64,000 nucleotides of DNA from Nitrosopumilaceae archaeon (GTDB lineage: Archaea; Thermoproteota; Nitrososphaeria; Nitrososphaerales; Nitrosopumilaceae), in assembly GCA_965208905.1 (NCBI GenBank), contig OZ242365.1, forward strand, positions 1,344,001-1,408,000, written 5' to 3'. The position numbers were made by a program, and so were the translations under genes. Shown here one piece after another: positions 685-63,204 of the stretch (position 1 is its first letter; each line of letters opens with the position of its first letter). The notes below the pieces were generated by a model, which saw only the letters and a list, made by a program, of their open reading frames with translations, did not search any database and was not told the origin of the DNA.

Positions 685-789
685 GATGTAACCTTGCTTA
701 TCAATGATAAGTATGTTTGCTATATGCTGATGTGATGTATCGTAAATGATGTAGAACCCATACGACTATCATCTCACCAATTATGGGAA

Positions 790-2145
790 TTATATAGATA
801 AGAAAACAGCCACAGCTGCGCGCTTATCCCTTTTCTGACGACTTTTCTGTATGGAGTGGAGCATGGCGGGTGTTGGCTTGTAGCCCTCCTTGTGCCCCGG
901 CCGTCTTAGGACGACGTTCCCCGCCGCCCGATACAGAATGTTCCAGGCGGCATTGACATCCGCGTGGAACACTCTGGTACAGTTAGTGCAAATGAACTTA
1001 TCGCGTGATATACGCGACTCTGAGTCTACGTGACCACACACATGGCACGTCTGGCTCGTATATTTGGCCGATGCCCCCAACAGCGGTATGTTGTGCATCT
1101 CACACCACTGCGCAAGCTTGCGCAGGAACTCCCCAACACGGTTCTCCCGCATTGAACGGTTCATGGCGCGTTTGTAATTCCCGCCATGGGTGGTCATATC
1201 CTTTACGGAGAGCGATTCGACCACGACTGCGTCCACACCATTAGTTATCTGCGCAATCGTCTGATTTATCGTGTTCGCGGCTATGTTGTTGGCCTTCCTG
1301 TATAGCCGCTTAATTTGGTCATTCAATACACACCACTTCCGGCCATGCCGTACCTTATGGTCACGAAGGTTCTTGAGCGCGTCAATCTCCCGCAGGATTG
1401 CTCTATGGCGTGTGTTGTGTATTGTAACATTGCCATTTGTGTCGACGGTAACTGCCAGGTGTTTGCCGCCCACATCAACACCACGTATTACACCTGTATT
1501 GCGGTGCGGCTCGACCGGGACGCGCACGGCGATATGTATCTCAAACATGTGGTCGGACGGCTTTGTATGCTTGTCCACCCGTTTGGTGACATCAACTATC
1601 TTGAATGAGCGCATGTCCCATGATACATCGATGGGCTTGGCGGTCTCCACCGTACCATATCCGGGGATATGTATGGTGTGCTCACCTTTTCGTACAGGCG
1701 GTGTAACGGAACAAAGTATGATGCGGCCGTCTTTGCGGCGGTACGGCGCGTGGTCTGAGTTGTCATCTATAACCCTTCTACATGCGGCGGAGGCATCCTG
1801 TATGGCGCCCCTGCCAAACGATGCGGGGCACTCGCGCAGCCATGTATGTTTGGCGCGCCACCCCGTAAGCTGCTTGAACATGCCATACTTTAATGCCCTC
1901 TTTGACGGCCCAAAATCATATGTATGGTAGTCATCGTCCAGCGTACCTGATGTAAAACCACCTAGTTTGCCCGGCAGTTTGAATGGCTGAAGGATGTCCA
2001 CTACCACCCTCTCCATATATTCGCCACCAAACAAATACTCTGATACGGCGCGGTTGTACACATATCTTGACGCATGATTCGTGCGGTGCGCCCACTCTAC
2101 AAACAACACATCCTTTCGTAGCGGTACCTTGACTATCCGTATCAT
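790..2145 (-). CDS. tnpB: TnpB family RNA-guided endonuclease, apparently intact
   Basis: RuvC motifs GVDVGG, VVVESL, HADVNAAWNI; zinc finger TSQTCHVCG...CTNC; N-terminal SRYVYNRAV. Confidence 0.92.
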   Translation of the reverse strand: MIRIVKVPLRKDVLFVEWAHRTNHASRYVYNRAVSEYLFGGEYMERVVVDILQPFKLPGKLGGFTSGTLDDDYHTYDFGPSKRALKYGMFKQLTGWRAKHTWLRECPASFGRGAIQDASAACRRVIDDNSDHAPYRRKDGRIILCSVTPPVRKGEHTIHIPGYGTVETAKPIDVSWDMRSFKIVDVTKRVDKHTKPSDHMFEIHIAVRVPVEPHRNTGVIRGVDVGGKHLAVTVDTNGNVTIHNTRHRAILREIDALKNLRDHKVRHGRKWCVLNDQIKRLYRKANNIAANTINQTIAQITNGVDAVVVESLSVKDMTTHGGNYKRAMNRSMRENRVGEFLRKLAQWCEMHNIPLLGASAKYTSQTCHVCGHVDSESRISRDKFICTNCTRVFHADVNAAWNILYRAAGNVVLRRPGHKEGYKPTPAMLHSIQKSRQKRDKRAAVAVFLSI

Positions 2146-2165
2146 GATGTGTAATACGGTATACT

Positions 2166-2176
2166 GGTATTTAAGG
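2166..2176 (-). promoter_or_regulatory. Putative archaeal TATA box of tnpB A
   Basis: Minus-strand CTTAAATA about 25 nt upstream of the start; the same octamer precedes tnpB B1 and B2. Confidence 0.45.
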
Positions 2177-2311
2177 AAGAATGTGGCGCATAGGCATGAA
2201 ATCCATGGTGGTTTAGGCGTTAACCAAAACCTCCGCAGGGGTGTTCTAATCTATATAATTCCCCCAATTATCATACAAAACATCAAATATGTCTTGTAAA
2301 ACTTACTATGT

Positions 2312-3705: not shown

Positions 3706-6700
3706 ATGATTAAATTAATGCTAGTAGCCATTATTACATTCTCACTGGCCGGAGTATCAGTACTTGCTTACTATGATACTCCCCAGAGCAATGCCGTGCC
3801 ACAGAGTGCAGGCATTCCGTTTGCAGAAGCTTCCACCCTACCCTCTGTTTCTCATGAAATATGGATAGAGGCAGTAAAAATGCCCGATGGGATGTACGCA
3901 TACAAACTTGCCGCATATGACATGGATGGCACATCTGTGATCGACAGGTTTAGCACTAAACCATCAATTCCCGGTCCGACTCTGATCTTTACCGAGGGCG
4001 ATGAGGTTACGCTGCACCTGACAAATTTAGCCTGCAAGGATGATTATCTCATAGGAAGTAATGGACCGAACGAGAATTCTTATCTTGGAATTCACGTTCA
4101 CGGCGTGCATTATTCTATAGAAGATGATGCAAGCTACCAGCGAATGCATATGACCGGCACCACCGCTGAATCCGCCGCAAGCTGTGGCGATTCGGTGACT
4201 TACGAATGGGATGTCGGCGTTGGAACTGCTGGAACATGGCCTTATCACGATCACACATTCAGCAAGAATGAAATCGGCTCCGAAGATCTGGGACTGTTCG
4301 GGACTGTCATTGTAAACCCCGCAAGCGGGACGGTTTCTGGTTTTGTCAATGGCGAGACTGGAACGATAGATTCAATACCCGTTGAAGACATCGAAAAGGA
4401 ATTCATCCTTTGGATGGTTTCCTCCAAAGTTTTGGGTACAAGTGTCTTTTATGGTATGGAAGTTGATAATGACGTAAACAATGATGGTACCATAACCACA
4501 GACGACATCAAGCAGACCCCGTTGTGGACCAATCCTCCGCTCTACGCAACCGACGGTGCCAAAGTCAGATACCATGTACTTGGCATAGGTGATGAAACAC
4601 ACGCATTCCACCTTCACGGCCACCGCTGGGTTGAAGCTACCGGAGGCGCAGCCGACATCATCGATGTAAAGGAGATATCGCCACTGCAGCGCCACACATT
4701 CGTCATTGAAGCGAGCGATAACGGAAATGAGCACACAGGTACGGAAGGTTGGATGTATCACTGTCATGTGTTTGAACACATGGAAGCTGGTATGAACGGA
4801 ATGATGATGGTAATCGACGGTAGCGATACGCTGCCGGAGATCGGCGCCGTCTTTACACTGAGCGATGAGCCGGGGACTTGGATGAAAACCTTGGATTCCG
4901 GGTTTACCGACGTACTTGACGATGCCTTAGCCGCTTCCACCCTGACCATCTCTGATGAGGCAGGTGAAGAAACGGTAATTCCATCACTGAACGCTAACCC
5001 GGAGGAGGGTACAGGATTCCCGCTGGATTATCTAGGCGTATTGTCTCCTGGATTCGCGGATTCTGAGGGCCGCTCCTTGGCGGTTATCGAGACCGGCCAA
5101 ACCGTACTGTTTGGCATGAAAGACTCGCAAACAAAACACACCATCACTGCGCTAATCTATCCGACTTCTGCCGCTTCGGATGGGCCGATTGGCGGCAACG
5201 GCGTATTGACGCAAGCCGGCATAGGACTCTTTGATGCCCAGACTGGTATCCGAGGCTCCACATTCATCACTGATGATGATGGATTTGCAGCCACGCTTGA
5301 CGAGCCCGGACTGTACGTGTTTGTCTGCAAGATACACCCGTATATGCTCAGCGCAGTCATAGTTGACGACCCCGAAACAAACATACATCTGGGTAATGTC
5401 AACAAGGATTCCGGCGGCACAACAATTCCACTATTGGACCTCTCTGACAACCTGACCATTCTGACCCGCACCGGCACGTCCTTCCCGACAACGGTGTCCA
5501 TAAGTCCAGACGATCCGTTGATCGGACTGGTTACATCCTTGGTCAAGACATTCTACGCGATCACCGACCCGTCCAACTGGAAGGATTACACCCAAGATAC
5601 ATGGAATGTAAACCTTCCACCAGCACCATTGACTACAAACAACAACGATGTATGGATCTTCTTGGTCGATGGTGATACCGTGGGTACCATTGCGGGATTG
5701 ACGGCTCCGTCCAACCCCGACACCGGAACAGTCGCGTCAACCATCCTGCCTCTAGGCTTGGACAGCTCTATGTCTATCAGCGCAGATGTCCCGCAAGTCA
5801 GCGGAGTAGGCGAGGTTTGGGTGAATACGCAGTTTGAGGCCACAGTGGGCAAGAACCTGCTGGGCACGCACGCGGACAAGCCAGGTACCATAACTGTGAT
5901 TAACGCAGATGACTGGAGCATTGAGCGCAAGCTTTCCTTGCCTGAACTTGGGACGAACGATCCACAAAGATTGGCCACGAGTTTGGGCATGAACAACCCC
6001 CATAATCTCTGGGCCGATGCCAAAAACGAGGTTATCTACCAGACTCAGTGGTTTGACAAACGGATGGTTGCATTCGAACGCGAATCCGGAGACGTAATCA
6101 AGGACATGTTTGTTGGTGAATCTCCATCACACGTTATGACTGCTCCTGCGGGAAGCGGTGAAGGAAACATTTACCTTGCCATGAACGGCGAGGAACAAAT
6201 TACAGTGGTAGATCCCAACACCTTTGATATCATTCAACAGATATCTACCGGTCCGCGTTCACACCCACACGGTCATTGGATATCCAGTGACGGCTCAAAA
6301 ATCGTAACTCCAGACTTTATAGGACTGAAGGCATCCATCATAGATCTTGAAGAAGGTACCGTGACCAGTGCTGCACATGCGGATGGTTCCACCCTGTTGA
6401 TTACGCCGATTGCAACCGGCATGATGGGTGATGTTTCAAAGTTCTATACCGCCGATTTCCTAGGAAACACCCTATCGGTAATTGATCTTAGTACAAACAC
6501 CATTACAAAACAAATAGACATAATTGCCGAAACTGGTGGCATAGTTGGACTTCCAATCCAGACGCCGGTTAGTCCGGATGATAAATGGATGGTTACTGCA
6601 CACACACTTGGCACAAAGATCACCGTCGTTGATACTCGTACGGATGAAATTGTTGCCACTCTTCCATGTGATCCCGAATGCCATGGTGTTCAGTGGGGCG

Positions 6701-7065
6701 CAAAAAAGAACGGAGGATACTTGGCATACGTGTCCAGTAAATTCTCCAATGCTCTGATTGTCGTCGATCCTGACCCTAATGGAAACGGTAGCGCCCTTGA
6801 CGCAAGGGTTATTGGGAAGATTGTTCTCACAGAGCAGTTTGATACAGACATGGATGACCGAGTATACGATCACGCCGGAATGGGAGGACAAGGTCTCCTT
6901 ACAGTTCCAAATGTTTATGCGGGATGGATTCAGCAAACTATCGAAGCATGCTCAGATGGACAAGGAGAGCTCAGCGAACAACTGTGTGGAGAAGAGATGG
7001 TCGCATTCTTAGAATCACTAGAAGACGAACACTTGGACCCATTAAATCCTGCTAACGACGGCTAA
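3706..7065 (+). CDS. Secreted two-domain multicopper oxidase fused to a cupredoxin domain and a YVTN-type beta-propeller
   Basis: Signal peptide; HVHG, WPYHDH, HAFHLHGH, YHCHVFEHMEAGM; HTIT...FVCKIHPYM; repeated propeller blades (ITVVD, LSVID). Confidence 0.85.
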   Translation: MIKLMLVAIITFSLAGVSVLAYYDTPQSNAVPQSAGIPFAEASTLPSVSHEIWIEAVKMPDGMYAYKLAAYDMDGTSVIDRFSTKPSIPGPTLIFTEGDEVTLHLTNLACKDDYLIGSNGPNENSYLGIHVHGVHYSIEDDASYQRMHMTGTTAESAASCGDSVTYEWDVGVGTAGTWPYHDHTFSKNEIGSEDLGLFGTVIVNPASGTVSGFVNGETGTIDSIPVEDIEKEFILWMVSSKVLGTSVFYGMEVDNDVNNDGTITTDDIKQTPLWTNPPLYATDGAKVRYHVLGIGDETHAFHLHGHRWVEATGGAADIIDVKEISPLQRHTFVIEASDNGNEHTGTEGWMYHCHVFEHMEAGMNGMMMVIDGSDTLPEIGAVFTLSDEPGTWMKTLDSGFTDVLDDALAASTLTISDEAGEETVIPSLNANPEEGTGFPLDYLGVLSPGFADSEGRSLAVIETGQTVLFGMKDSQTKHTITALIYPTSAASDGPIGGNGVLTQAGIGLFDAQTGIRGSTFITDDDGFAATLDEPGLYVFVCKIHPYMLSAVIVDDPETNIHLGNVNKDSGGTTIPLLDLSDNLTILTRTGTSFPTTVSISPDDPLIGLVTSLVKTFYAITDPSNWKDYTQDTWNVNLPPAPLTTNNNDVWIFLVDGDTVGTIAGLTAPSNPDTGTVASTILPLGLDSSMSISADVPQVSGVGEVWVNTQFEATVGKNLLGTHADKPGTITVINADDWSIERKLSLPELGTNDPQRLATSLGMNNPHNLWADAKNEVIYQTQWFDKRMVAFERESGDVIKDMFVGESPSHVMTAPAGSGEGNIYLAMNGEEQITVVDPNTFDIIQQISTGPRSHPHGHWISSDGSKIVTPDFIGLKASIIDLEEGTVTSAAHADGSTLLITPIATGMMGDVSKFYTADFLGNTLSVIDLSTNTITKQIDIIAETGGIVGLPIQTPVSPDDKWMVTAHTLGTKITVVDTRTDEIVATLPCDPECHGVQWGAKKNGGYLAYVSSKFSNALIVVDPDPNGNGSALDARVIGKIVLTEQFDTDMDDRVYDHAGMGGQGLLTVPNVYAGWIQQTIEACSDGQGELSEQLCGEEMVAFLESLEDEHLDPLNPANDG

Positions 7066-21356: not shown

Positions 21357-21725
21357 AGGGCTATCGGGATGATCCGGACGATGCCAATCCTCAAGACCTC
21401 CCGGGCCAGACTGACATACTTTATCGAGAGGCACGCCGCCACTGGTACCAAGATCTACACCGACGACAACGCGGCCTGCCGCAACCTGCTCAACCACGGG
21501 CCGTCGACTACTCGACAGGCGAGTACGTCCGGGGATGGGTCCATATCAACGGGATGGAGTCGTTCTGGGCCTTGCTACGGCGCGGCTATGACGGGGCGTT
21601 TCACCACTTGTCCAAGAAGCGCCTGCACCGGTACGCCAACAAGTTCACGGGGAGACTGCACGCCAGGGTCCTAGATATGATGGTCAGGAGTGTGGTCGGG
21701 AAGAGGCTGACGTATAGTCAACTGG
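21357..21725 (+). pseudogene. IS1595-family transposase C-terminal fragment, frameshifted
   Basis: GTKIYTDD; GEYVRG.VHINGMESFWALLRRGY...HLSKKRLHRY. Confidence 0.8.
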
Positions 21726-32057: not shown

Positions 32058-33439
32058 CCATGACCAACCGCAAGATGACCAACGCCAGGCGCGTGGCCAA
32101 CCGGGATATTGCCTAGGGTATACCGGTTCGGGGGCGTTTCGCCGCCCCCTGCCCAGCGAGGGGCGGCTCAACGCCCTTTGTACCTCCCCGCCGTCTGGTT
32201 GCTCAAAAATAATGCAGTAGAAAGCCAACCATCTGCAACTTCACGGGGTTAACACCTGCCCTTTTCCCCGGGGACGCGTGGGGGATTCTGCGCACCATAA
32301 TTTCCTATACGCCCGCAATCCACTTGGAACATACACTCAAACCACTTTGGATGGGGTTTACATACTGTATAATGCCGTATTGGTGCCCCCATCTTGCAAA
32401 AAGATACTCTAATACTTAAAAATCAGACAGACCCATACCATTTGGACCGGATCAAATGTATTACCAACACATAACATCAATGGGTTTTAGCAACCCAAAC
32501 ACATGGAAGTTCCCTGTGCATATAGCGTGTGATGCAAAAATTTGCTTCGGAAGGCTCAAGCCAAGGCTCACAGGGGTTCATAACCGACGATACAGCAAGA
32601 TATGCTATATAATCCAAGCAGCCCCACAGACTTTATGGAGGGTTAGAACAAAAACCAGATGTAAAGTAGGCCCGCTGAAGTATATTCGCCGGCGCGTTGG
32701 AATCGGCGCAGTCGCCCACATGATATGCATGAACACAATTCGTTATTTTGACTCTTCCTGCCTATACACGTAGCATGTCTGGCTGGCCGTTCAACGACTC
32801 AGTTATACACAAAGCGCTGTACATGCCATATATCGCCGATACGGCGTGCTTGCGAATCATACGGAATCCGATGTAGTACATGGCATTGTATCACTCTTAA
32901 AAATGTGGAGTTTTGGTTTTCGATATGTCCGGTTAAGTATGTTATTTCCGCAATCTTGCACGCGCAGATTATATACGGTATGCGTGTTGGAGTATGTACA
33001 TAACATGGTGACCTCCACAACTCAACAGGGGGAAAGACATCTGGAGTATACTAAAAACCAAACCATCATGGTGTCCGGTTGTACAGGATTTATTGGATCC
33101 CATCTTACAACAAGACTCTCTTCAATGGGATACTCTGTGCGCGGCTTGACAAGAAAGGACATGAATGATCATGACAATATCACATATGTGAAAGCAGATG
33201 TCTTTGATCTTCCAAGTCTGACTAGTGTCATGAAAGGGGTGGATGTGGCATATTACCTACTTCATTCCATGGAGGGTGGCAAAGGTGACTGGCAAGACTT
33301 TGCCAAGAGGGAGAAGGAACAAGCTATGAACTTTCTTCAGGCCGCAAATACATCAAATGTCAAGAGAATCATATATCTTGGATGGAGTGGACCCCATAGA
33401 ATGTTACTGTTTTCGGCATGATTTTACATACATCTTCCA

Positions 33440-34300
33440 TCATTTATTTGTCATCTCCAACTGTTCGGCAAATTCTACTGGTGTCATGTATCCGATAGAG
33501 GAATGAATCCTCTCGGTGTTGTAATCTACAAAGGCCTTTGCAATGATCGTCTCTGCCTCCTGATAGTTCGCAAACTCGTGCGGCCAGATGTATTCCTTTT
33601 TCAGCGTCTTGTGAAATGATTCGACATGTCCGTTCTGCTCCGGCGTATTCTTGTAGATGAATTCATGTTTGCCGATGCCAAGGGCCTGAACCGCATGTCT
33701 AAAGTCGCGGCTCGTATACTGGTTGCCGTTGTCCGTACGCAATCGTAATTGTGAGCAGTCAGGTTTCTCTGCGGCAACCGCGTTGGTGATTGAGGTGATT
33801 GCAATGTCTCGTGTGGCATTGACATCAAACGCGTAGGCGATCCACTTGCGCGTAAAGCAGTCAATTACGTTGAAGCAGTAGCACCAGCCGTCTATACCGC
33901 ACCAGATGTATGTGATGTCCGTCTCCCACAACTGGTGTGGGGCTTTGGGTTTGAAGAGCTTTTGACCCGCTCGAATGATGTCGTTTTTGGTATTTTGTGG
34001 CTGGATGTAGCCCATTTTGCGATATATCCGCTGTATCTGCTTGCGGTTCACCACAATTCCCGTATCGCGCGTTATCTGGGCCGCCATGCGCCGTGTGCCG
34101 TACGTGGGCCTCTTTCTGCTCGTATCTAGCACAGTGCTCAATATATCCGGATTCAATCCCATGTCTCTGGGCTTGGGTTTGTAGTACCATTGGCGCCTGG
34201 ATACGCCCGCATACCCTAGCGACTTGCGCAGGCTCAAATGTTGTTCCTGCATGATTTTTACCGCGTTCAATCGTTGCTTGCCTCCAAGGTTTTTTTTAAA
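33440..34300 (-). CDS. IS3 OrfB (DDE), probably reached by -1 frameshift
   Basis: YGTRRM, WETDITYI, VIDCFTR, RTDNGNQY, NGHVESFH; slippery TTTAAAAAAAAC at about 34289-34300. Confidence 0.88.
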   Translation of the reverse strand, partial: FKKNLGGKQRLNAVKIMQEQHLSLRKSLGYAGVSRRQWYYKPKPRDMGLNPDILSTVLDTSRKRPTYGTRRMAAQITRDTGIVVNRKQIQRIYRKMGYIQPQNTKNDIIRAGQKLFKPKAPHQLWETDITYIWCGIDGWCYCFNVIDCFTRKWIAYAFDVNATRDIAITSITNAVAAEKPDCSQLRLRTDNGNQYTSRDFRHAVQALGIGKHEFIYKNTPEQNGHVESFHKTLKKEYIWPHEFANYQEAETIIAKAFVDYNTERIHSSIGYMTPVEFAEQLEMTNK

Positions 34301-34557
34301 GCGTCGTTTGCGATTGTCAGATCCCCTATGATTCGCTTTAGGTCGCCGTTCTCCTTTTTGATGGCCTTTATCGGATCCTTCTTTCCGTGATGGGTCAGTC
34401 CGGACTTGCCTGCGTCCATGAACTTTTGCCGCCAGGCTTGAAACGTTTGGGGATGAACGTTGTGCTTGCGGCACAGCTCGGCCGTGCCAATATTGGTCTT
34501 GATTGATTCCAAAACGATCTGGATCTTTTGGTCTGGAGTAAACTTTGTTCTTACCAT
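34267..34557 (-). CDS. IS3 OrfA (HTH)
   Basis: KFTPDQKIQIV...ELCRKHNV...WRQKF...ENGDLKRIIG. Confidence 0.88.
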   Translation of the reverse strand: MVRTKFTPDQKIQIVLESIKTNIGTAELCRKHNVHPQTFQAWRQKFMDAGKSGLTHHGKKDPIKAIKKENGDLKRIIGDLTIANDALKKTLEASND

Positions 34558-35632
34558 GGCATCATCCCTCCCATTACGACTTTAAGCTGTATGAACGTGA
34601 GTGTTCTCATTCTAGCGGGGTCCCCACCATGGAGGGCTGGTCAGTAGTGATGGCTCTGAACTCTCACCTCACATGGAGAGTAGAATAAAGGTAGGTCAAA
34701 TTCTTGCATCGGGAAGTATTCCTGTTACAGAACTGCGTGCGTCCATAATAATCGGTGCTCGCGGAGGATCCTTTATGATGTTGAGGTACTTGGTTGAGAG
34801 GCTTAGGTTTATGGTCTGTCCATCGTGGGTGGGCTCATATACCCAACCAATTGCGGTTGATGATGTGGTGGCGTACCTTGTGGGATGCCTTGAGAAGAAG
34901 GAGTCAACTGGTCGAATTTTTGAGATTGGTGGTCCGGACAAGATGACATATGAGCAGCTTATGCGCACGTATTCTACATATTTAGATCGTACATTATTTA
35001 TACTAAATGTACCATTTCTGACTACTCGCCTGTCATCCTTGTGGGTTGATCTGATAACTCCCGTCAAGGCGGCGCTTGCAAGGCCTTTGATAGACAGTCT
35101 AGTACACGACTCGGTTGTCACAGATTCATCGATTGACAAGATAATGCCGATGAAACTAAAGACGGTCACCGAGTCCATTGACATTGCCATTAAAGAAGCA
35201 GACTCCAACTCTGATAGTGCTGTTATTAGACGCAATGCGAAGACCGGGTTTGGACTAAACCAAAAGATTGTACTATTTTCGCTGATTGCCTTGGGGATAT
35301 GCGGTACGTCATATTACTGGTTGGATGATCGGCCTGTTGTGTATGAACCACTTTGGCTGTCTGTCTCTTCTGTATGGTATGTCATTATTGCCTTTGCAGT
35401 AATTATGGTTCGCAACGAGACGAGATTAGGTTATATGGTTGCAGGGGTCCTGGCCTGGGTGACACTGTCGTTTTGGCTGTTTGACAACTTTTATGTTGTG
35501 TTTGACGCATCGATCATCTCTACTGAACCAAACTTTATGATGACTATCCGTAATTTTGTGGGAGTTGTTGTTGCCGCCACGGCAATTATTGCTTCCCATA
35601 ACCTATTCCACAAGAGCGTTTATACGTGATCA

Positions 35633-37002
35633 GGAGCTGTCAAATCTTAGAGGGATATGACAGCCTGCCGTACGGCAGATGTTGGCGAGTTGCCATCCAG
35701 AGGAGATTCCATGAGATGTTCCTTGTTGGTCAGGCTTTGATGCCCGTCCTTTGGACAGCCTGTACCGGCCATCACGTCACCAACGACACTGGGTATAGTG
35801 AGTGTCGCAAGATGTATCTTCCCTCTCAAGACCATTCCGGCCTTGGCTTGCAGTGAATAAACGGCCTGCGCGCGTTTACTCCACTACACTGTATAAAAAG
35901 TGAATAATATGTTGAACGCGGCATTGACATCCGCGTGCTGTACAACGCCGCACTCACGGCACCTGAACCGGCTGCCGTCGCGCCACGTGTTTGTGCTGCC
36001 GTATACACAGCACTGCTGTGATGTGTATTTCGGGTCAATCTCGGCATACTCGGTGTTGTGTTGCAAAGCCTGTTGTGCCAACAAAGCCCGCGCCTCACCG
36101 CACTTGAACTGCCGCATTAGACGGTTCTTGTTCTTCTGGCCTGGGCCCTTGGTCGTCATTGTACGGAGGTTCATGCCCTCCATGATTATTTTGTCGCATT
36201 GCGCAAATAGTTTTTTGGCAAACTTGCGCAGCTTGTCTGTTTGCCGGTTTCCCATCTTGCGGTATATGCTTTGCAGCTGCGCGTGCAGTGTCCACCACTT
36301 GTGGGAGTGAAGTTTGCAATGAGACATCTTCTTTTGAATACGCGCGATGTTCCGTATAGTGTCCTTCTCGCGCAGTGTAGTCATCTCTATTCTGCCGTCC
36401 GATTTTGCCACCACAAGCGTTTGTTTGCCGCCCATGTCAATTCCCGCATGTACGCCGGTACATACACGGTCCGGAACGTGTTCACGTATAGTAACATGCA
36501 GCTCAAACTGTCTTTCCCTGTCCGCATTATTCGTCACATCCACAATTTTGTACGACTGCAATGTGTCGGGCAGGCGTCCTTTCTGGAGTTTGAAAGGTTT
36601 GTCGCACTTTGGGCAATACACTGTATTACCCTTGGACTTTTTGCCAAGCGGCATATTACTATACAGTGGGTAAACCTTCTTGCCATACTTTACGTGAGTG
36701 CACCCCCCCATCTTGTGGCCTTCCTTGATGGCTCCGTGAACCCAAGACTGTGGTATGCCCTGGCATATGGTGGCTATTTTGTTGGTGTCAAACACCGACA
36801 GCCCGGCCCGGCGCGCCTTTATCCCCGCATTGAGCCACACATGACTCTCCGAGTACATGGAGTCAAAATATCTGGTCAGCCTGGCAGATGTCTTTAAACG
36901 GTATTGGACAGTCTTTATGACGTACTTTCCACCATTATACTTCATGTGTGGTTTATAACTTGGTGCTATTTAAGCGGTATCCCCCTAAGATTTGACAGTA
37001 CC
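35633..37002 (-). mobile_element. Non-autonomous TIR element carrying only tnpB (element B1, 1370 bp)
   Basis: TIR GGAGCTGTCAAATCTTAGAGGGATA versus GGTACTGTCAAATCTTAGGGGGATA (22/25); TSD CGTGATCA at 35625-35632 and 37003-37010. Confidence 0.92.
35884..36945 (-). CDS. tnpB: TnpB family nuclease, copy B1 (early TAG after RuvC-III; one zinc-finger Cys replaced by Tyr)
   Basis: GIDMGG, IIMEGM, HADVNAAFNI; TSQQCCVYG. Confidence 0.88.
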   Translation of the reverse strand: MKYNGGKYVIKTVQYRLKTSARLTRYFDSMYSESHVWLNAGIKARRAGLSVFDTNKIATICQGIPQSWVHGAIKEGHKMGGCTHVKYGKKVYPLYSNMPLGKKSKGNTVYCPKCDKPFKLQKGRLPDTLQSYKIVDVTNNADRERQFELHVTIREHVPDRVCTGVHAGIDMGGKQTLVVAKSDGRIEMTTLREKDTIRNIARIQKKMSHCKLHSHKWWTLHAQLQSIYRKMGNRQTDKLRKFAKKLFAQCDKIIMEGMNLRTMTTKGPGQKNKNRLMRQFKCGEARALLAQQALQHNTEYAEIDPKYTSQQCCVYGSTNTWRDGSRFRCRECGVVQHADVNAAFNILFTFYTV

Positions 37003-57640: not shown

Positions 57641-57676
57641 TATGGTGGCGCTATAACTGAACAGTTCATTTTTTTC

Positions 57677-58720
57677 TCTATTGTGCGGAAATTAGTTCGC
57701 CCTAACTTTAGACTGCCAACCAAAGAATATTTTAGTCTATATAGATCACGCAAACCCATGAGAGTCAATCTGACACAGAAGCAGATAGATTATATCATTC
57801 GACAATGCAGGAAAGGTAGTAGTACATCACACATTGCTACAGAGATGAAGATTAGCCAGAGACGCGTACAACAACTCTGGGCAATGTATCGTGCAACGGG
57901 CAAGATTCCCACACTACAAATGCCAGGCAGACCCAAGATTCCTCCCACCGAGGAGCAAACCAACGTCGTACTAGCAGCACATCGTATAATGCCAGCAGGC
58001 GTCACAAGGATCACCAAGTACTTAAATCACAAGGGCATACAAATAAGTGAAAAAACGGTATACACAATCATGAAAGAAAACAATATGGTCACTCTATCTG
58101 CAGCAAAATCGCGCAGGCGTAAATGGATACGCTATGAGCGCAGATACTCCAATGCGATGTGGCATACGGACTGGCATGCGATGAAAGATCCACGTTTTCA
58201 AGGCTACCAATTAATCACATATCTTGATGATGCGTCAAGATGTGTGGTTGGAGCCATGATATTCAAGGGGGCCACATCCGAGAACGCGGTAACAGTCCTG
58301 CAAAATAGCATTGTTGAGTTTGGAACCCCGGCCACCATACTCTCCGACAACGGATCGTGCTTTGTGGGTGTGAGAAGAAAGATTCCTGCAAAATCATGGA
58401 CCCCCACTATATTTGAGGCAGAGCTGCTTGACCGGGGTATTGAGTTGATCAACACCCGCCCCTACCACCCACAAACAAACGGCAAGCTTGAACGGTTCCA
58501 CCGCACCTTGGAAGAAGAACTATGTCATTTTGGCAGCCTAGCGGAGTTTGTCGCGTACTACAACGAGGTGCGACTGCACTGGTCTTTAGACATAAACAAT
58601 GGCGAGACCCCGCTACAGGCATTTCACAACAAAAAAGTACCAGATGATGTCAGGAAGAGTGACTTAGAATGGATGGAGAGGGACACCGATGACTAGGCGA
58701 AATAATTTCGACATAATACA
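57677..58720 (+). mobile_element. IS481-family insertion sequence
   Basis: 25-bp imperfect TIRs; 15-bp TSD CAGTTCATTTTTTTC at 57662-57676 and 58721-58735. Confidence 0.92.
57758..58696 (+). CDS. IS481 transposase, intact
   Basis: HTH; WHTDW, YLDDASR, ILSDNGS, YHPQTNGKLERFHRT. Confidence 0.92.
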   Translation: MRVNLTQKQIDYIIRQCRKGSSTSHIATEMKISQRRVQQLWAMYRATGKIPTLQMPGRPKIPPTEEQTNVVLAAHRIMPAGVTRITKYLNHKGIQISEKTVYTIMKENNMVTLSAAKSRRRKWIRYERRYSNAMWHTDWHAMKDPRFQGYQLITYLDDASRCVVGAMIFKGATSENAVTVLQNSIVEFGTPATILSDNGSCFVGVRRKIPAKSWTPTIFEAELLDRGIELINTRPYHPQTNGKLERFHRTLEEELCHFGSLAEFVAYYNEVRLHWSLDINNGETPLQAFHNKKVPDDVRKSDLEWMERDTDD

Positions 58721-58867
58721 CAGTTCATTTTTTTCAGATATGGTTATAAATGATGGCAACAGTTATGCGCGGTATGATGGCCTACAAAACGACAGTTCTG
58801 GCGGTTGGTGCGATCTGCGCGATCGCAGGCATGTTGTGGGCCATGTATGATACGACATGGGACGGCG

Positions 58868-59495: not shown

Positions 59496-60742
59496 CGCTC
59501 ATCTATCTAATGTTGGGGGTGGCAATTACGCCCATAGGGCGGCGGAGTTGGCGTTCAGTGTAGAAAAAGCATGAACCGGCCAGATGACACGCGCCTGCAG
59601 GACGGATTCTGCGGAAAATAATTACGGCGCGAAAAGCATCTTGGTCAGGCCCGCCTCTCGGGATATTGGTCAAGGATGGCGGCCAGCGCAACCACGAACC
59701 TGCCATTGATGCCATAGTGCCTGTGGTTGTGGACAAACTGGAAAGACTTGACGTACCGTTCCAGATGCCATTTGCTTACGCCGCGGTGTTTTTTCAGCCA
59801 CCATATACAGCAGGCCTATCCGGCACTCGCAGTTATTGGTATGAATATCGTTGTGCTCGCCTGATGCGTATTCTCCTTCGTTGTGGTTGATGACCAGGTG
59901 GCCATATCCCATCTCTCCAAGGCTCTTGTAGGCGGGATGCTCGTCGGTGATCACCGTTGAGCCCGGTTCGAACCTCCCGGCCACCATTTCGGCCAGCGTT
60001 TTGCCGTCGCCACGGGGAACCTCGAAGATGGCCACATCCGGTTCGCCTTCTGCGGCCCGCTGATGGTGGATGGTGACCATCGGCGTGTTCTTCTCGAAGG
60101 TGCCCCTGCCCGGACCGCGGGGCAGCTGGCGGCGGCTGGGGACAGTCCGGTTCTCGCCGTTGCTGCCCAATGACACCCCCTTGGAGCCGGCCCTGGTGTA
60201 TCCCTCATCGGCCTCACCCGTCCCGGACAGCTTGCCCTCCGGCAGCTCGCCCACCTTCCGCATGATGTCGCGGTACATCTGGTAGACGGTCCCGTAGGCG
60301 TTGCCTATCGAAGTTGCAATATAGTTTATCGATATCCCGTTGGGCGGCCCGCACAGGAACATCCAGACCGCCAGCATCCAGTCTCCCATCCGGACGTGCC
60401 GGTAGTGAAGAATAGTCCCGGTCTTGTCGTTGAAGGTCCGGCAACAGCCCTTGCACGTGTACCTCCGGATGTGTCCCTGGTATCGGCAGTACCGGACGAT
60501 ATCAACCCCGCCGCAACGTGGGTAGAACAGGCCGTTGGCCCACCGGACCGTCCTGAACAACTCGCTGTAGCCACCATATCGGCAAACAATGCCAGCAGGA
60601 GCAACAGGGGACCGGATTCTTTTTGTTTTTGCGTTTTGCCACACGCCATGGAGGTATGGAGGGATCTACCTCTATAGATCTTTTTCGATTACACCTACTT
60701 GGTGCGGGGCTTCACTTACCCCCAACACTCAACAGATGAGCG
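59496..60742 (-). mobile_element. IS1595-family element (ISH4-like ends), transposase decayed
   Basis: TIRs CGCTCATCT(n6)TGTTGGGGGT at both ends; no TSD seen. Confidence 0.8.
59600..60644 (-). pseudogene. IS1595/ISXO2-like transposase, frameshifted near 59805
   Basis: VRWANG..PRCG...CKGC..TFNDKTGT, EADEGY, ITDEHPAY, HTNNCE; first zinc-finger Cys lost. Confidence 0.85.
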
Positions 60743-61834: not shown

Positions 61835-63204
61835 GGAGTTGTCAAATCTTAGAGGGATATGACAGCCTGCCGTACGGCAGATGTTGGCGAGTTGCCATCC
61901 AGAGGAGATTCCATGAGATGTTCCTTGTTGGTCAGGCTTTGATGCCCGTCCTTTGGACAGCCTGTACCGGCCATCACGTCACCAACGACACTGGGTATTG
62001 TGAGTGTCGCGAGATGTATCTTCCCTCTCAAGACCATTCCGGCCTTGTTGTACAGTGCGTAAACGGCCTGCGCCCGCTTGCTCCACTGTATGGTACGAAA
62101 AGTGAAAAGGATGTTGAATGCCGCGTTTACATCAGCGTGCATCAGAACGCCGCACTCATGGCACCTGAACCGGCTGCCGTCGCGCCACGTGTTTGTTCTG
62201 CCGCATACACAGCACTGCTGCGATGTGTATTTCGGGTCAATCTCGGCATATTCGGTGTTGTGCTTGAGTGACTGCTGCGCCATGTGGGACCGCGCCTCAC
62301 CGCACTTGGACTGCCGCATCAGACGGTTCTTGTTCTTCTGGCCTGGGCCCTTGGTCGTCATGGTACGGAGGTTCATCCCCTCCATGATGATTTTGTCGCA
62401 TTGCGCGAACAGTTTTTTGGCGAACTTGCGCAGCTTGTCTGTTTGCCGGTTTCCCATCTTGCGGTATATGCTTTGCAGCTGCGCGTGCAGTGTACACCAC
62501 TTGTGGGAGTGAAGTTTGCAATGAGACATCTTCTTTTGAATACGCGCGATGTTTCGTATAGTGTCCTTCTCGCGCAACATCAGCATCTCAATTCTGCCGT
62601 CCGATTTTGCCACCACAAGCGTGTGCTTGCCGCCCATGTCAATTCCCGCATGTACGCCGGTACATACACGGTCCGGGACATGTTCACGTATAGTAACATG
62701 CAGCTCAAACTGTCTTTCCCTGTCCGCATTATTCGTCACATCCACAATTTTGTACGACTGTGATGTGTCGGGCAGGCGTCCTTTCTGGAGTTTGAAGGGC
62801 GCGCCACACTTTGGGAAATACACTGTATTACCCTTGGACTTTTTGCCAAGCGGCATATTACTATACAGTGGGTAAACCTTCTTGCCATACTTTACGTGAG
62901 TGCACCCCTCCATCTTGTGGCCTTCCTTGATGGCTCCGTGAACCCAAGACTGTGGTATGCCCTGGCATATGGTGGCTATTTTGTTGGTGTCAAACACCGA
63001 CAGACCGGCACGGCGCGCCTTTATCCCCGCATTGAGCCACACATGACTCTCCGAATACATAGAGTCAAAGTATCTGGTCAGCTTGGCGGATGTCTTTAAA
63101 CGGTATTGGACAGTCTTTATAATGTACTTTCAATTATCATACTTCATATGTAGTTTACAACTCGGTGCTATTTAAGCGGTATCCCCCTAAGATTTGACAG
63201 TGTC
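61835..63204 (-). mobile_element. Second copy of TIR-tnpB element B (B2, 1370 bp)
   Basis: Same TIR core TGTCAAATCTTAG at both ends, same length as B1; flanks CTTGCA and CTTGTACA form a degenerate TSD. Confidence 0.9.
61849..63147 (-). pseudogene. tnpB: TnpB copy B2 with TGA at codon 6, otherwise open with intact RuvC and zinc finger
   Basis: ATG at 63147 is equivalent to the B1 start; GGA>TGA at 63130-63132; tracked ORF starts at an internal Met (63060). Confidence 0.85.

Follow-up and report, generated by a model that had tools for sequence, protein, structure and literature searches.

TnpB, the ancestor of Cas12, is generally regarded as the homing nuclease of IS200/IS605 and IS607 elements, and a tnpB gene that travels alone between inverted repeats and short target-site duplications raises the questions of which enzyme moves it, and of what use an RNA-guided nuclease might be to a cut-and-paste transposon. 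A 2026 review argues, in the sections covered, that DDE elements gain little from TnpB (PMC13565253). Such a gene occupies positions 785-2263 of the window, the whole 64,000-nucleotide stretch of archaeal DNA analysed here. We consider it likely that this unit is a non-autonomous IS1595 element with TnpB and its guide-RNA scaffold as sole cargo, mobilised in trans and retained through the activity of TnpB, and the positions of its copies suggest that the nuclease helps such transposons to persist.

Positions 785-2263 form a 1479-bp unit in which an intact tnpB is the one real gene, lying between inverted ends whose first 15 bases are perfectly complementary. A repeat search returned 29-nt arms at 86% identity for the same ends, because a partly palindromic flank lengthens the match. 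The sequence thus bears out the original prediction of a 1479-bp unit with 23-bp terminal repeats, 15 bases of them perfect, an 8-bp target duplication, TnpB as the only real ORF, and a stop codon inside the repeat, which places the tnpB 3' end 5 nt from the transposon end. The features observed or proposed are as follows:

765..784, minus strand: putative guide-templating flank, comprising the 8-bp duplication plus about 12 nt, proposed by analogy with IS200/IS605 and from the position of the flank motif
777..784, unstranded: left target-site duplication CCAATTAT, present as the single copy CCAATAAT at the empty site of sister genome G083
785..807, unstranded: terminal inverted repeat at the tnpB 3' end, complementary to 2241-2263 at 21/23 positions and holding the stop codon 790-792
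785..1014, minus strand: putative omega-RNA scaffold that overlaps the 3' end of tnpB and extends as far as the final base of the element
790..2145, minus strand: tnpB, 451 aa, with RuvC residues D224/E310/D396 and a CCCC zinc finger intact
2168..2174, minus strand: TATA-like box lying about 23 nt ahead of the start codon of tnpB, a presumed promoter element
2241..2263, unstranded: terminal inverted repeat on the tnpB 5' side, complementary to 785-807
2264..2271, unstranded: right target-site duplication, an exact match to 777-784
2272..2275, minus strand: candidate TAM position, here T-A-T-G, the four bases 5' of the upstream duplication, with a putative function

The 451-aa frame is the sole long ORF in the unit with a family match; a 219-aa antisense ORF (1271-1930) matched no NCBIfam family. 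ORF and profile searches found no DDE transposase ORF with an N-terminal zinc ribbon in 785-2263, and without a transposase of its own the unit is a dependent element rather than an autonomous IS. The TATA-like box is present in 15/15 copies compared, and a hairpin lies just inside the 3' end repeat.

The encoded protein matches Pfam OrfB_IS605 (32.6 bits, cut-off 30.5), Pfam Cas12f1-like_TNB (62.1 bits, cut-off 26.3) and NCBIfam guided_TnpB (126.9 bits, cut-off 100), as well as TnpB and Cas12f chains in the PDB at E values down to 1.7e-11; scores against the NCBIfam IS200_TnpB and IS607_TnpB models were far under their cut-offs. The catalytic triad and zinc finger had been predicted to be intact, and D224, E310, D396, C367, C370, C386 and C389 indeed do not vary among six aligned, divergent TnpBs carried by elements of this type. 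The tnpB frame is uninterrupted in 14/16 copies, and the median dN/dS of the TnpB core among the 14 intact paralogous copies is 0.21; as judged from these substitutions, TnpB is under purifying selection. A profile search found 75 TnpB-domain matches in the genome, where TnpB is carried by at least five end types. A diverged group of nine TnpB members was also observed, around genome positions 394681, 740801 and others.

Copies of the element, recovered with blastn, number 15 full-length and one interrupted. Boundaries coincide exactly with the end repeats in all 15 copies examined, and the 8-bp duplication is perfect in 12 of the 16, matches at 7/8 positions in one and is absent in three; among the 13 with a duplication (at most one mismatch), the 8-mers differ between all copies. 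The original prediction had anticipated further copies with their own duplications, and had named boundaries out of register with the repeats, or flanking 8-mers identical throughout, as observations that would speak against it; neither was seen. An empty site with a single 8-mer had likewise been anticipated and is found in sister genome G083, where both flanks are present (97% and 96% identical) and overlap by exactly 8 bp without the element, leaving the one 8-mer CCAATAAT. G083 also has an empty site for a copy of family R. With nearest paralogs at 82-98% identity, none of the copies is very recent. A search for relatives with a two-protein alignment added one further genome carrying the same family, and among metatranscriptome and DNA contigs over 600-2450 none joins across the element and no empty allele was seen. 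Four short 3'-end fragments (genome positions 1494006, 2197325, 1694379 and 2089312) were considered as guide-RNA-only MITEs and rejected, as none has a matching 8-mer together with a 5' end.

A plausible source of transposase is at hand, as the genome contains four autonomous IS1595-family elements that agree with the unit in their outer 10-13 end bases and likewise have 8-bp duplications. The outer 12 bases of 785-807 are identical in two of these, L010 and L011 (12-13 across comparisons), and ten outer bases in a third, L009; a fifth autonomous element, L028, on a contig of another assembly, has 21 end bases in common with the main subfamily. The four autonomous elements of this genome encode proteins of 316-320 aa with a DDE_Tnp_IS1595 domain (E ~1e-40) and a zinc ribbon (Zn_ribbon_IS1595), which also match NCBIfam transpos_IS1595 (E ~1e-52), and autonomous copies carry passenger genes (a DNA methylase-HNH fusion). 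The ends of the TnpB element presumably resemble the consensus of the ISNwi1 group of the IS1595 family. That sharing with autonomous elements of this genome is limited to 10-13 outer bases, that three copies lack a duplication and that none is very recent weigh against the account favoured here. For the end type of families P and R, no autonomous partner came to light; the elements seen within 6 kb are TnpB carriers and short derivatives. Profiles of the classical partners returned nothing in this 99.6%-complete, single-contig genome, with zero matches to Y1_Tnp (controls positive in 6/14 genomes) and zero to Resolvase (controls positive in 12/14). An internal IS605-type end pair nested within the repeats, also named in the original prediction as contrary evidence, would have no Y1 or serine transposase of this genome to use it. 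Separately, a shorter IS1595-like element with unrelated ends occurs in three copies, and L016, where two weak end matches spanning 4178 bp enclose a formate/nitrite transporter, was set aside as probably due to chance. The further copies, the empty site and the autonomous elements with common ends together support the reading of a non-autonomous IS1595-type element; the proposal that TnpB had been captured by a non-autonomous DDE element, and the expectation of an autonomous IS with the same terminal repeat, both gain by the recovery of partners that share outer end bases and encode IS1595-family DDE transposases.

The 3' part of the element may encode a structured RNA. An alignment of 19 copies yielded a consensus fold of 45 pairs, eight with compensatory changes, and the single-sequence fold of the putative scaffold has a z-score of -2.67; synonymous divergence is lower in the last ~45 tnpB codons (0.246 vs 0.415). 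An Rfam scan of 500-2600 gave two sub-threshold chance matches only. Sponge metatranscriptome contigs match 898-1237 with 0-1 differences at a depth of 2-8, and carry neither strand nor ends; the RNA contigs leave 724-847 and 2150-2273 uncovered, but as contigs they can neither establish absence nor locate RNA ends, and some may stem from carried-over DNA.

Immediately 5' of the upstream duplication, every large family shows an asymmetric motif of its own. In the main family, G occupies position -1, adjoining that duplication, in 13/13 copies with a duplication (binomial p 4.7e-9); 10/13 also have T at -3, and 9/13 have A at -4. In family R, positions -2/-1 read T-A in 8/8 copies, whereas the five copies of family P all have T-T at -3/-2, three of them with G at -1. 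The mirror positions on the downstream side are unbiased, and the one-sided motif follows the orientation of tnpB. Of five relatives from another genome, four have G at -1 and one (L107/L134) has A, and two more distant TnpB carriers likewise have G. The motif is already present in the empty site, where it would occupy the candidate TAM position if the guide starts with the duplicated 8-mer.

These observations can be accommodated in a single cycle. An IS1595 transposase encoded elsewhere would bind the common ends and move the element in trans, and tnpB would be transcribed from its own TATA-like promoter. The omega-RNA, predicted to comprise the last ~230 nt of the element, would read through the end repeat into the flank, so that the guide would begin with the duplicated 8-mer. 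The TnpB complex could then cut its own insertion site in the empty state, the motif 5' of the single 8-mer serving as TAM, and repair from the element-holding copy would restore the element. In the occupied site the end repeat, and not the motif, would precede the guide match, such that the element would not cut itself. Copies landing next to a suitable motif would persist, which would explain why every large family has a motif of its own. DDE excision is not known to restore empty sites precisely, and the A at -1 in one relative, the lack of a common motif in the three-copy D family and the small number of family P copies weigh against the TAM reading. A broader reading, on which we would not quite wager, is that TnpB in this lineage has fully left Y1 and serine transposases and resides only on DDE carriers of at least five end types, with homing refitted to them: the guide would start with the 8-mer, the TAM would lie beyond the upstream duplication, and only insertions that land beside a TAM would persist. 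On that reading the flank motifs A-T-N-G, T-T-A and T-T-G would be natural read-outs of TAMs.

The motif might instead reflect a target preference of the IS1595 transposase or transpososome that moves the element in trans, TnpB being a passenger with another role in persistence, or none. Autonomous IS1595 copies, when oriented by their transposase, have G at -1 in 3/8, which is not significant and does not exclude such a preference; insertion targets are AT-rich throughout, and the three-copy D family has no common flank motif, and all three observations favour this account. It is harder to reconcile with a motif that is one-sided and tnpB-oriented even though, in the main subfamily, both end repeats have the same sequence over 24 nt, with the difference in motif between families P and R (T-T-G vs T-T-A), which have one common end type, or with purifying selection on TnpB, and we regard it as possible but rather unlikely. 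A second role for the nuclease can be imagined at the insertion step itself, whereby TAM-bound TnpB would recruit or orient the DDE transpososome and so place the insertion beside the motif in fixed orientation. A motif that occurs in 13/13 and 8/8 copies, adjoining the duplication and always on the tnpB 5' side, is what this would produce, and post-insertion selection alone would need to be strong to match it. Yet the copies are old enough for selective retention to have acted, we know of no contact between TnpB and an IS1595 transposase, and insertion by known RNA-guided transposons falls tens of bases away from the PAM-distal end; targeting by TnpB is accordingly improbable.

It could also be asked whether the locus is simply an ordinary IS200/IS605 (IS1341-type) or IS607-type element, moved by a Y1 or serine TnpA, in which the repeats and 8-mers are incidental. 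These transposases are the usual partners of TnpB in the sections covered of PMC13565253 and PMC4810608, and the hairpin just inside the 3' end repeat would be in keeping with such an origin; but with neither a Y1_Tnp nor a Resolvase match in the complete genome, 15/15 copies ending at the repeats and 13/16 having different 8-bp duplications, exactly one 8-mer at the empty site, and IS200_TnpB and IS607_TnpB scores far under cut-off, we give this explanation almost no credence. Mobilisation in trans by an IS1595 transposase, with retention assisted by TnpB, is the reading we carry forward.

The genome offers a compact natural test set for that reading, comprising dozens of intact TnpBs with no classical partner transposase and several end types, together with a sister genome holding empty sites, and flank motifs from which a TAM can be predicted for each family. 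If these motifs prove to be TAMs, then TnpB-assisted retention extends to prokaryotic TIR/TSD transposons, as a prokaryotic counterpart of the Fanzor situation, and insertion sites alone would suffice to read off the TAMs of new compact nucleases. Should the refitting of homing prove true, it would answer directly what use a cut-and-paste transposon has for an RNA-guided nuclease.

Siguier and colleagues reportedly described IS1595 family insertion sequences in 2009, including members with passenger genes. As in that family, the ends begin GG, the target duplication is 8 bp, the partner transposases match IS1595 profiles, and autonomous copies carry passenger genes; in contrast, the TnpB element has no transposase, and what it carries is an RNA-guided nuclease together with its putative RNA, in an arrangement that would let this RNA extend into the flank.

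The element is not new in kind, as TnpBs in DDE transposons with inverted ends (branches DDE-1 to DDE-6) have been published, along with solo TnpBs that are moved in trans (Altae-Tran et al. 2023 PNAS, PMC10691335, in the sections covered). The DDE branches are defined there by inverted terminal repeats, a TnpB 3' end within 250 bp of the element end, and solo copies with similar ends, and the present element likewise has inverted repeats, a 3' end near its terminus and transposase-type ends. In both cases the ends of the solo TnpB match those of transposase-bearing elements, implying mobilisation in trans. The DDE families differ, those named in the available portions being IS630 (PMC10691335) and ISL2, IS630 and IS1031 (PMC13565253), as against IS1595 here; the term IS1595 does not occur in the main texts searched, that of PMC10691335 included, and may be listed in the supplements of that paper. 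The sections of that paper covered hold no statement on a motif across the target duplication. What goes beyond the published kind is the occurrence of at least five TnpB-carrying end types in one genome, and of oriented flank motifs specific to each large family.

With TnpB-only elements of the IS200/IS605 type (IS1341-type), the present element has in common the protein family, an intact triad and zinc finger, a putatively structured 3' region over the end of the ORF, and a short motif where an empty site would offer a TAM to a flank-derived guide. IS200/IS605 elements, however, lack inverted ends and duplications, depend on Y1 TnpA for movement, and have a TAM abutting the left end, whereas in the present case the 8-bp duplication stands between element and candidate TAM, and a DDE enzyme would be the mover. 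With inverted ends and duplications present, and no Y1 or serine transposase, the element falls outside both the IS200/IS605 (IS1341 group) and IS607 classes. Homing by TnpB and omega-RNA has reportedly been set out in a primary paper on ISDra2 and ISGst. The abstract of 10.1101/2023.11.20.567912 also describes such a homing role.

A further parallel lies in the Fanzor nucleases of eukaryotic and giant-virus TIR transposons (PMC10530073 and PMC3627910, in the sections covered). As excerpted, these too are TnpB-type nucleases carried as cargo by DDE-type TIR/TSD transposons, with a guide RNA that overlaps the end repeat and, in some cases, a TAM that agrees with the insertion site. The host here, unlike theirs, is an archaeon, and whereas Fanzor reads the short 5' target duplication as part of the TAM (PMC13565253, in the part covered), the variable 8-bp duplication of the present element would form part of the guide.

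The element carrying tnpB in the window is 1479 bp long when delimited by inspection of positions 600-2500, and its inverted-repeat ends match at 21 of 23 bases, the first 15 perfectly. Repeat detection gives longer arms (29 nt, 86%), an extension attributable to the partly palindromic flank. The tnpB stop codon (790-792) falls within the end repeat. The antisense strand has an ORF of 219 aa with no family match in NCBIfam, and the element is richer in G+C than the genome (51.7% vs 45.6%).

Features of the window element and its insertion site (window coordinates)
777-784: left copy of the duplication, CCAATTAT, immediately outside the element
785-2263: window element, 1479 bp, with inverted ends
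790-2145, minus strand: tnpB, 451 aa, the sole ORF with a family match
2264-2271: right copy of the duplication, CCAATTAT, immediately outside the element

The corresponding site is empty in a sister genome, G083, in which the left (97% identical) and right (96%) flanks overlap by exactly 8 bp, leaving one CCAATAAT and no element. DNA contigs from two runs, other than those with RNA matches described below, span both junctions of the insertion. The original prediction of an inverted-repeat unit with an 8-bp target-site duplication and an intact TnpB as its sole cargo is thus borne out, down to the expected empty site with a single 8-mer. The region downstream of the insertion includes an ORF of 1119 aa (3706-7065) whose N-terminus contains a signal-like segment.

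The host genome (a single contig of 2.21 Mb, 99.6% complete) contains 15 full-length copies of this main family by blastn, at 79-100% identity, together with one interrupted copy and a few fragments. All 15 full-length copies are bounded exactly by the repeats. Duplications flank 13 of the 16 copies (12 perfect over 8 bp, one 7/8), three having none, and the duplicated 8-mers all differ; further copies with their own duplications had been anticipated, and neither boundaries displaced from the repeats nor a recurrent flanking 8-mer was found. Nearest paralogs are 82-98% identical. G083 lacks any main-family member, its best TnpB match being 29% identical, and element DNA is present in seven of nine other genomes of the genus and in two of 141 others sampled from the archaeal family. 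The 21-base end motif occurs in public contigs whose titles name Cenarchaeum sp. or Nitrosopumilaceae MAGs, apart from two in bacterial bins.

One main-family copy (L015, genome 1972621-1975198) is split by an IS630-like element with a 335-aa DDE_3 transposase, and the outer TnpB element retains its perfect 8-bp duplication. At the site of another (L114, genome 33496-34967), G083 lacks 1633 bp, about 153 bp beyond the element and one duplication, and this copy may have inserted inside a small element likewise missing from G083. Two repeats, at window ~57674-58723 (~1050 bp) and 33380-34632 (~1250 bp), both recur in four to five or more other places in the genome at 99.7-100% identity and are probably currently active insertion sequences; a copy of the latter lies ~200 bp from the TnpB-element copy at genome position 729950.

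The window TnpB exceeds the Pfam cut-offs for both OrfB_IS605 and Cas12f1-like_TNB, and scores 126.9 bits against NCBIfam guided_TnpB (cut-off 100), with IS200_TnpB and IS607_TnpB scores far under their own cut-offs; it also has sequence matches to PDB chains of TnpB and Cas12f. Across six aligned TnpBs (23-57% identity, each from an inverted-end, TnpB-carrying element), D224, E310, D396, and all four cysteines of the zinc finger are fully conserved. The frame is uninterrupted in 14 of the 16 main-family copies, among which the core dN/dS has a median of 0.21 (91 pairs). In several divergent families with the window end type (window 790-792, L012, L018, L026, L092) the TnpB frame reaches a common stop codon inside the end repeat, and these proteins therefore share their last residue. 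Two of these elements, L018 and L026 (1918 and 1870 bp, on a Cenarchaeum sp. MAG chromosome), have ends like those of the window element and contain far longer TnpB-type ORFs, of 663 and 550 aa, the N-terminal extensions of which have no Pfam match.

A six-frame search places DDE_Tnp_IS1595 matches at 15 sites in the genome. Four of these lie in autonomous elements, two being 2131-bp copies and the others measuring 2837 and 2690 bp. The outermost 10-13 bases of the end repeats in these four are identical to those of the TnpB element, supplying the autonomous counterpart that had been sought, and all have perfect 8-bp duplications. Their proteins (316-320 aa) match DDE_Tnp_IS1595 (E ~1e-40) and NCBIfam transpos_IS1595 (E ~1e-52) and carry the IS1595 zinc ribbon. 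On a contig of another assembly, a 1843-bp element (L028) encodes a 320-aa IS1595 transposase, with one terminus of the element matching the main-subfamily end perfectly across 21 bases. Two of the four autonomous elements also carry a passenger gene.

Autonomous IS1595 elements with a passenger gene (genome coordinates)
1043578-1046414: L010, N6/N4 DNA methylase-HNH nuclease fusion, intact, 454 aa
1770047-1772736: L011, N6/N4 DNA methylase-HNH nuclease fusion, split

Neither Y1_Tnp nor Resolvase has a match in the host genome, whereas among 14 control genomes the same searches were positive in 6 (Y1_Tnp) and 12 (Resolvase). An IS1595 transposase acting in trans is therefore the sole plausible mover, and we infer that it mobilizes the TnpB element. 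Shared ends, 8-bp duplications, and the lack of Y1 and serine transposases together uphold the earlier proposal that TnpB was captured by a non-autonomous DDE element of IS1595 type. The window itself contains two further DDE_Tnp_IS1595 matches (59835-60161, L006, and 21497-21649, L008), one in a 331-aa frame of a shorter (~1070 bp), three-copy IS1595-like element with ends unrelated to those of the TnpB carriers, and one a fragment.

The TnpB zinc-ribbon domain has 75 matches in the genome. By a strict end-motif search, 24 of 74 TnpB matches lie in units with both ends of the window type, and represent four families with 8-bp duplications: the main family and those of 1420, 1554/1639, and 1438 bp. 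The others comprise additional multi-copy families with different inverted ends, a diverged group of nine matches, and a few fragments. Families P (nine matches, ~1515 bp) and R (at least 13, ~1615 bp) have a common second end type and 8-bp duplications; Q (three copies) a third type, with 8 bp; S and V a fourth, with ~3 bp; and U (two copies) a fifth, with 9 bp. We count ~60 of the 74 examined matches as lying within units whose inverted ends can be demonstrated. Family R is limited to the host genome and decayed copies in one relative, and is absent from G083, in which the site of one R copy is cleanly empty; two R copies encode identical proteins. The R TnpB frame has no stop ahead of the element end and continues into the flank. 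Two Q copies of ~1362-1370 bp, with an inverted end differing from that of the main family, lie in the window, one (35637-36998) with a perfect 8-bp duplication and the other (61839-63200) with flanking 8-mers that differ at four positions.

The TnpB 3' end adjoins an element end in all families examined. The last 230 nt of 19 main-family copies from two genomes yield a consensus fold of 45 pairs, eight with compensatory changes, and the hairpin that lies at the terminus, just within the end repeat, is retained despite stem sequences that differ between the genomes. The single-sequence fold of the window copy has z = -2.67, and synonymous divergence is 0.246 over the final ~45 codons, lower than the 0.415 of the core. 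Rfam has no match in the window element region. In two sponge metatranscriptome runs, contigs of depth 2-8 align to 898-1237 with 0-1 differences; they carry no information on strand or RNA ends and may reflect DNA carry-over.

When copies are oriented by tnpB and bases outside both duplications are taken from coordinates, a G immediately 5' of the upstream duplication (-1) is found in 13/13 main-family copies with a duplication (binomial p 4.7e-9; 14 of all 16); ten of the 13 also have T at -3, and nine have A at -4. Among five copies with perfect duplications from relatives in another genome (58% protein identity), four carry G at -1 and one carries A; G also stands there in two more distant TnpB carriers. 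All eight family R copies with a duplication have T at -2 followed by A at -1 (p ~3e-5 each; 11/12 over all copies), and family P has T-T at -3/-2 in 5/5 and G at -1 in 3/5; P and R thus differ in motif while sharing one end type. The D family (three copies) has no common flank motif, and no base is invariant among the four positions downstream of the other duplication copy (lowest p ~0.04). The motif is already present in the G083 empty sites of the window copy and an R-family copy, and is hence host DNA.

An omega-RNA reading out of the 3' end repeat would give a guide that opens with the duplicated 8-mer. At an empty site the motif precedes this 8-mer and would act as TAM; at an occupied site the end repeat would precede the downstream 8-mer and the element would follow the upstream one, such that neither junction would be a full target. 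Selective retention of copies beside the motif would then account for it, by the same logic as the homing of IS605 outlined in an abstract (10.1101/2023.11.20.567912), here displaced by the width of the duplication. The motif could also stem from a preference of the transposase, and transposase-bearing copies oriented by that gene have G at -1 in three of eight; TnpB-assisted targeting is a further possible explanation.

The main text of Altae-Tran et al. (2023; PMC10691335) distinguishes six branches of DDE-transposase-associated TnpBs; inverted terminal repeats are present in all of them, and the TnpB 3' end is ≤250 bp from an end. It also describes solo TnpBs inside nearly identical ends, implying mobilization in trans. 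We classify the window element as an IS1595-type, dependent TnpB carrier, of a kind already published in this sense. Passages of a 2026 review (PMC13565253) give the DDE families for TnpB as ISL2, IS630, and IS1031; 'IS1595' is absent from the main text of PMC10691335, and the titles and opening abstract lines found by full-text literature searches describe no TnpB on an IS1595-type carrier, such that this family was not found named for TnpB carriers in the literature so covered. Also beyond that literature are the total absence of the classical partner transposases from the genome, the several TnpB carrier types within it, and the family-specific motif across the duplication, the last of which recasts what TnpB does for a DDE transposon as a directly testable prediction.
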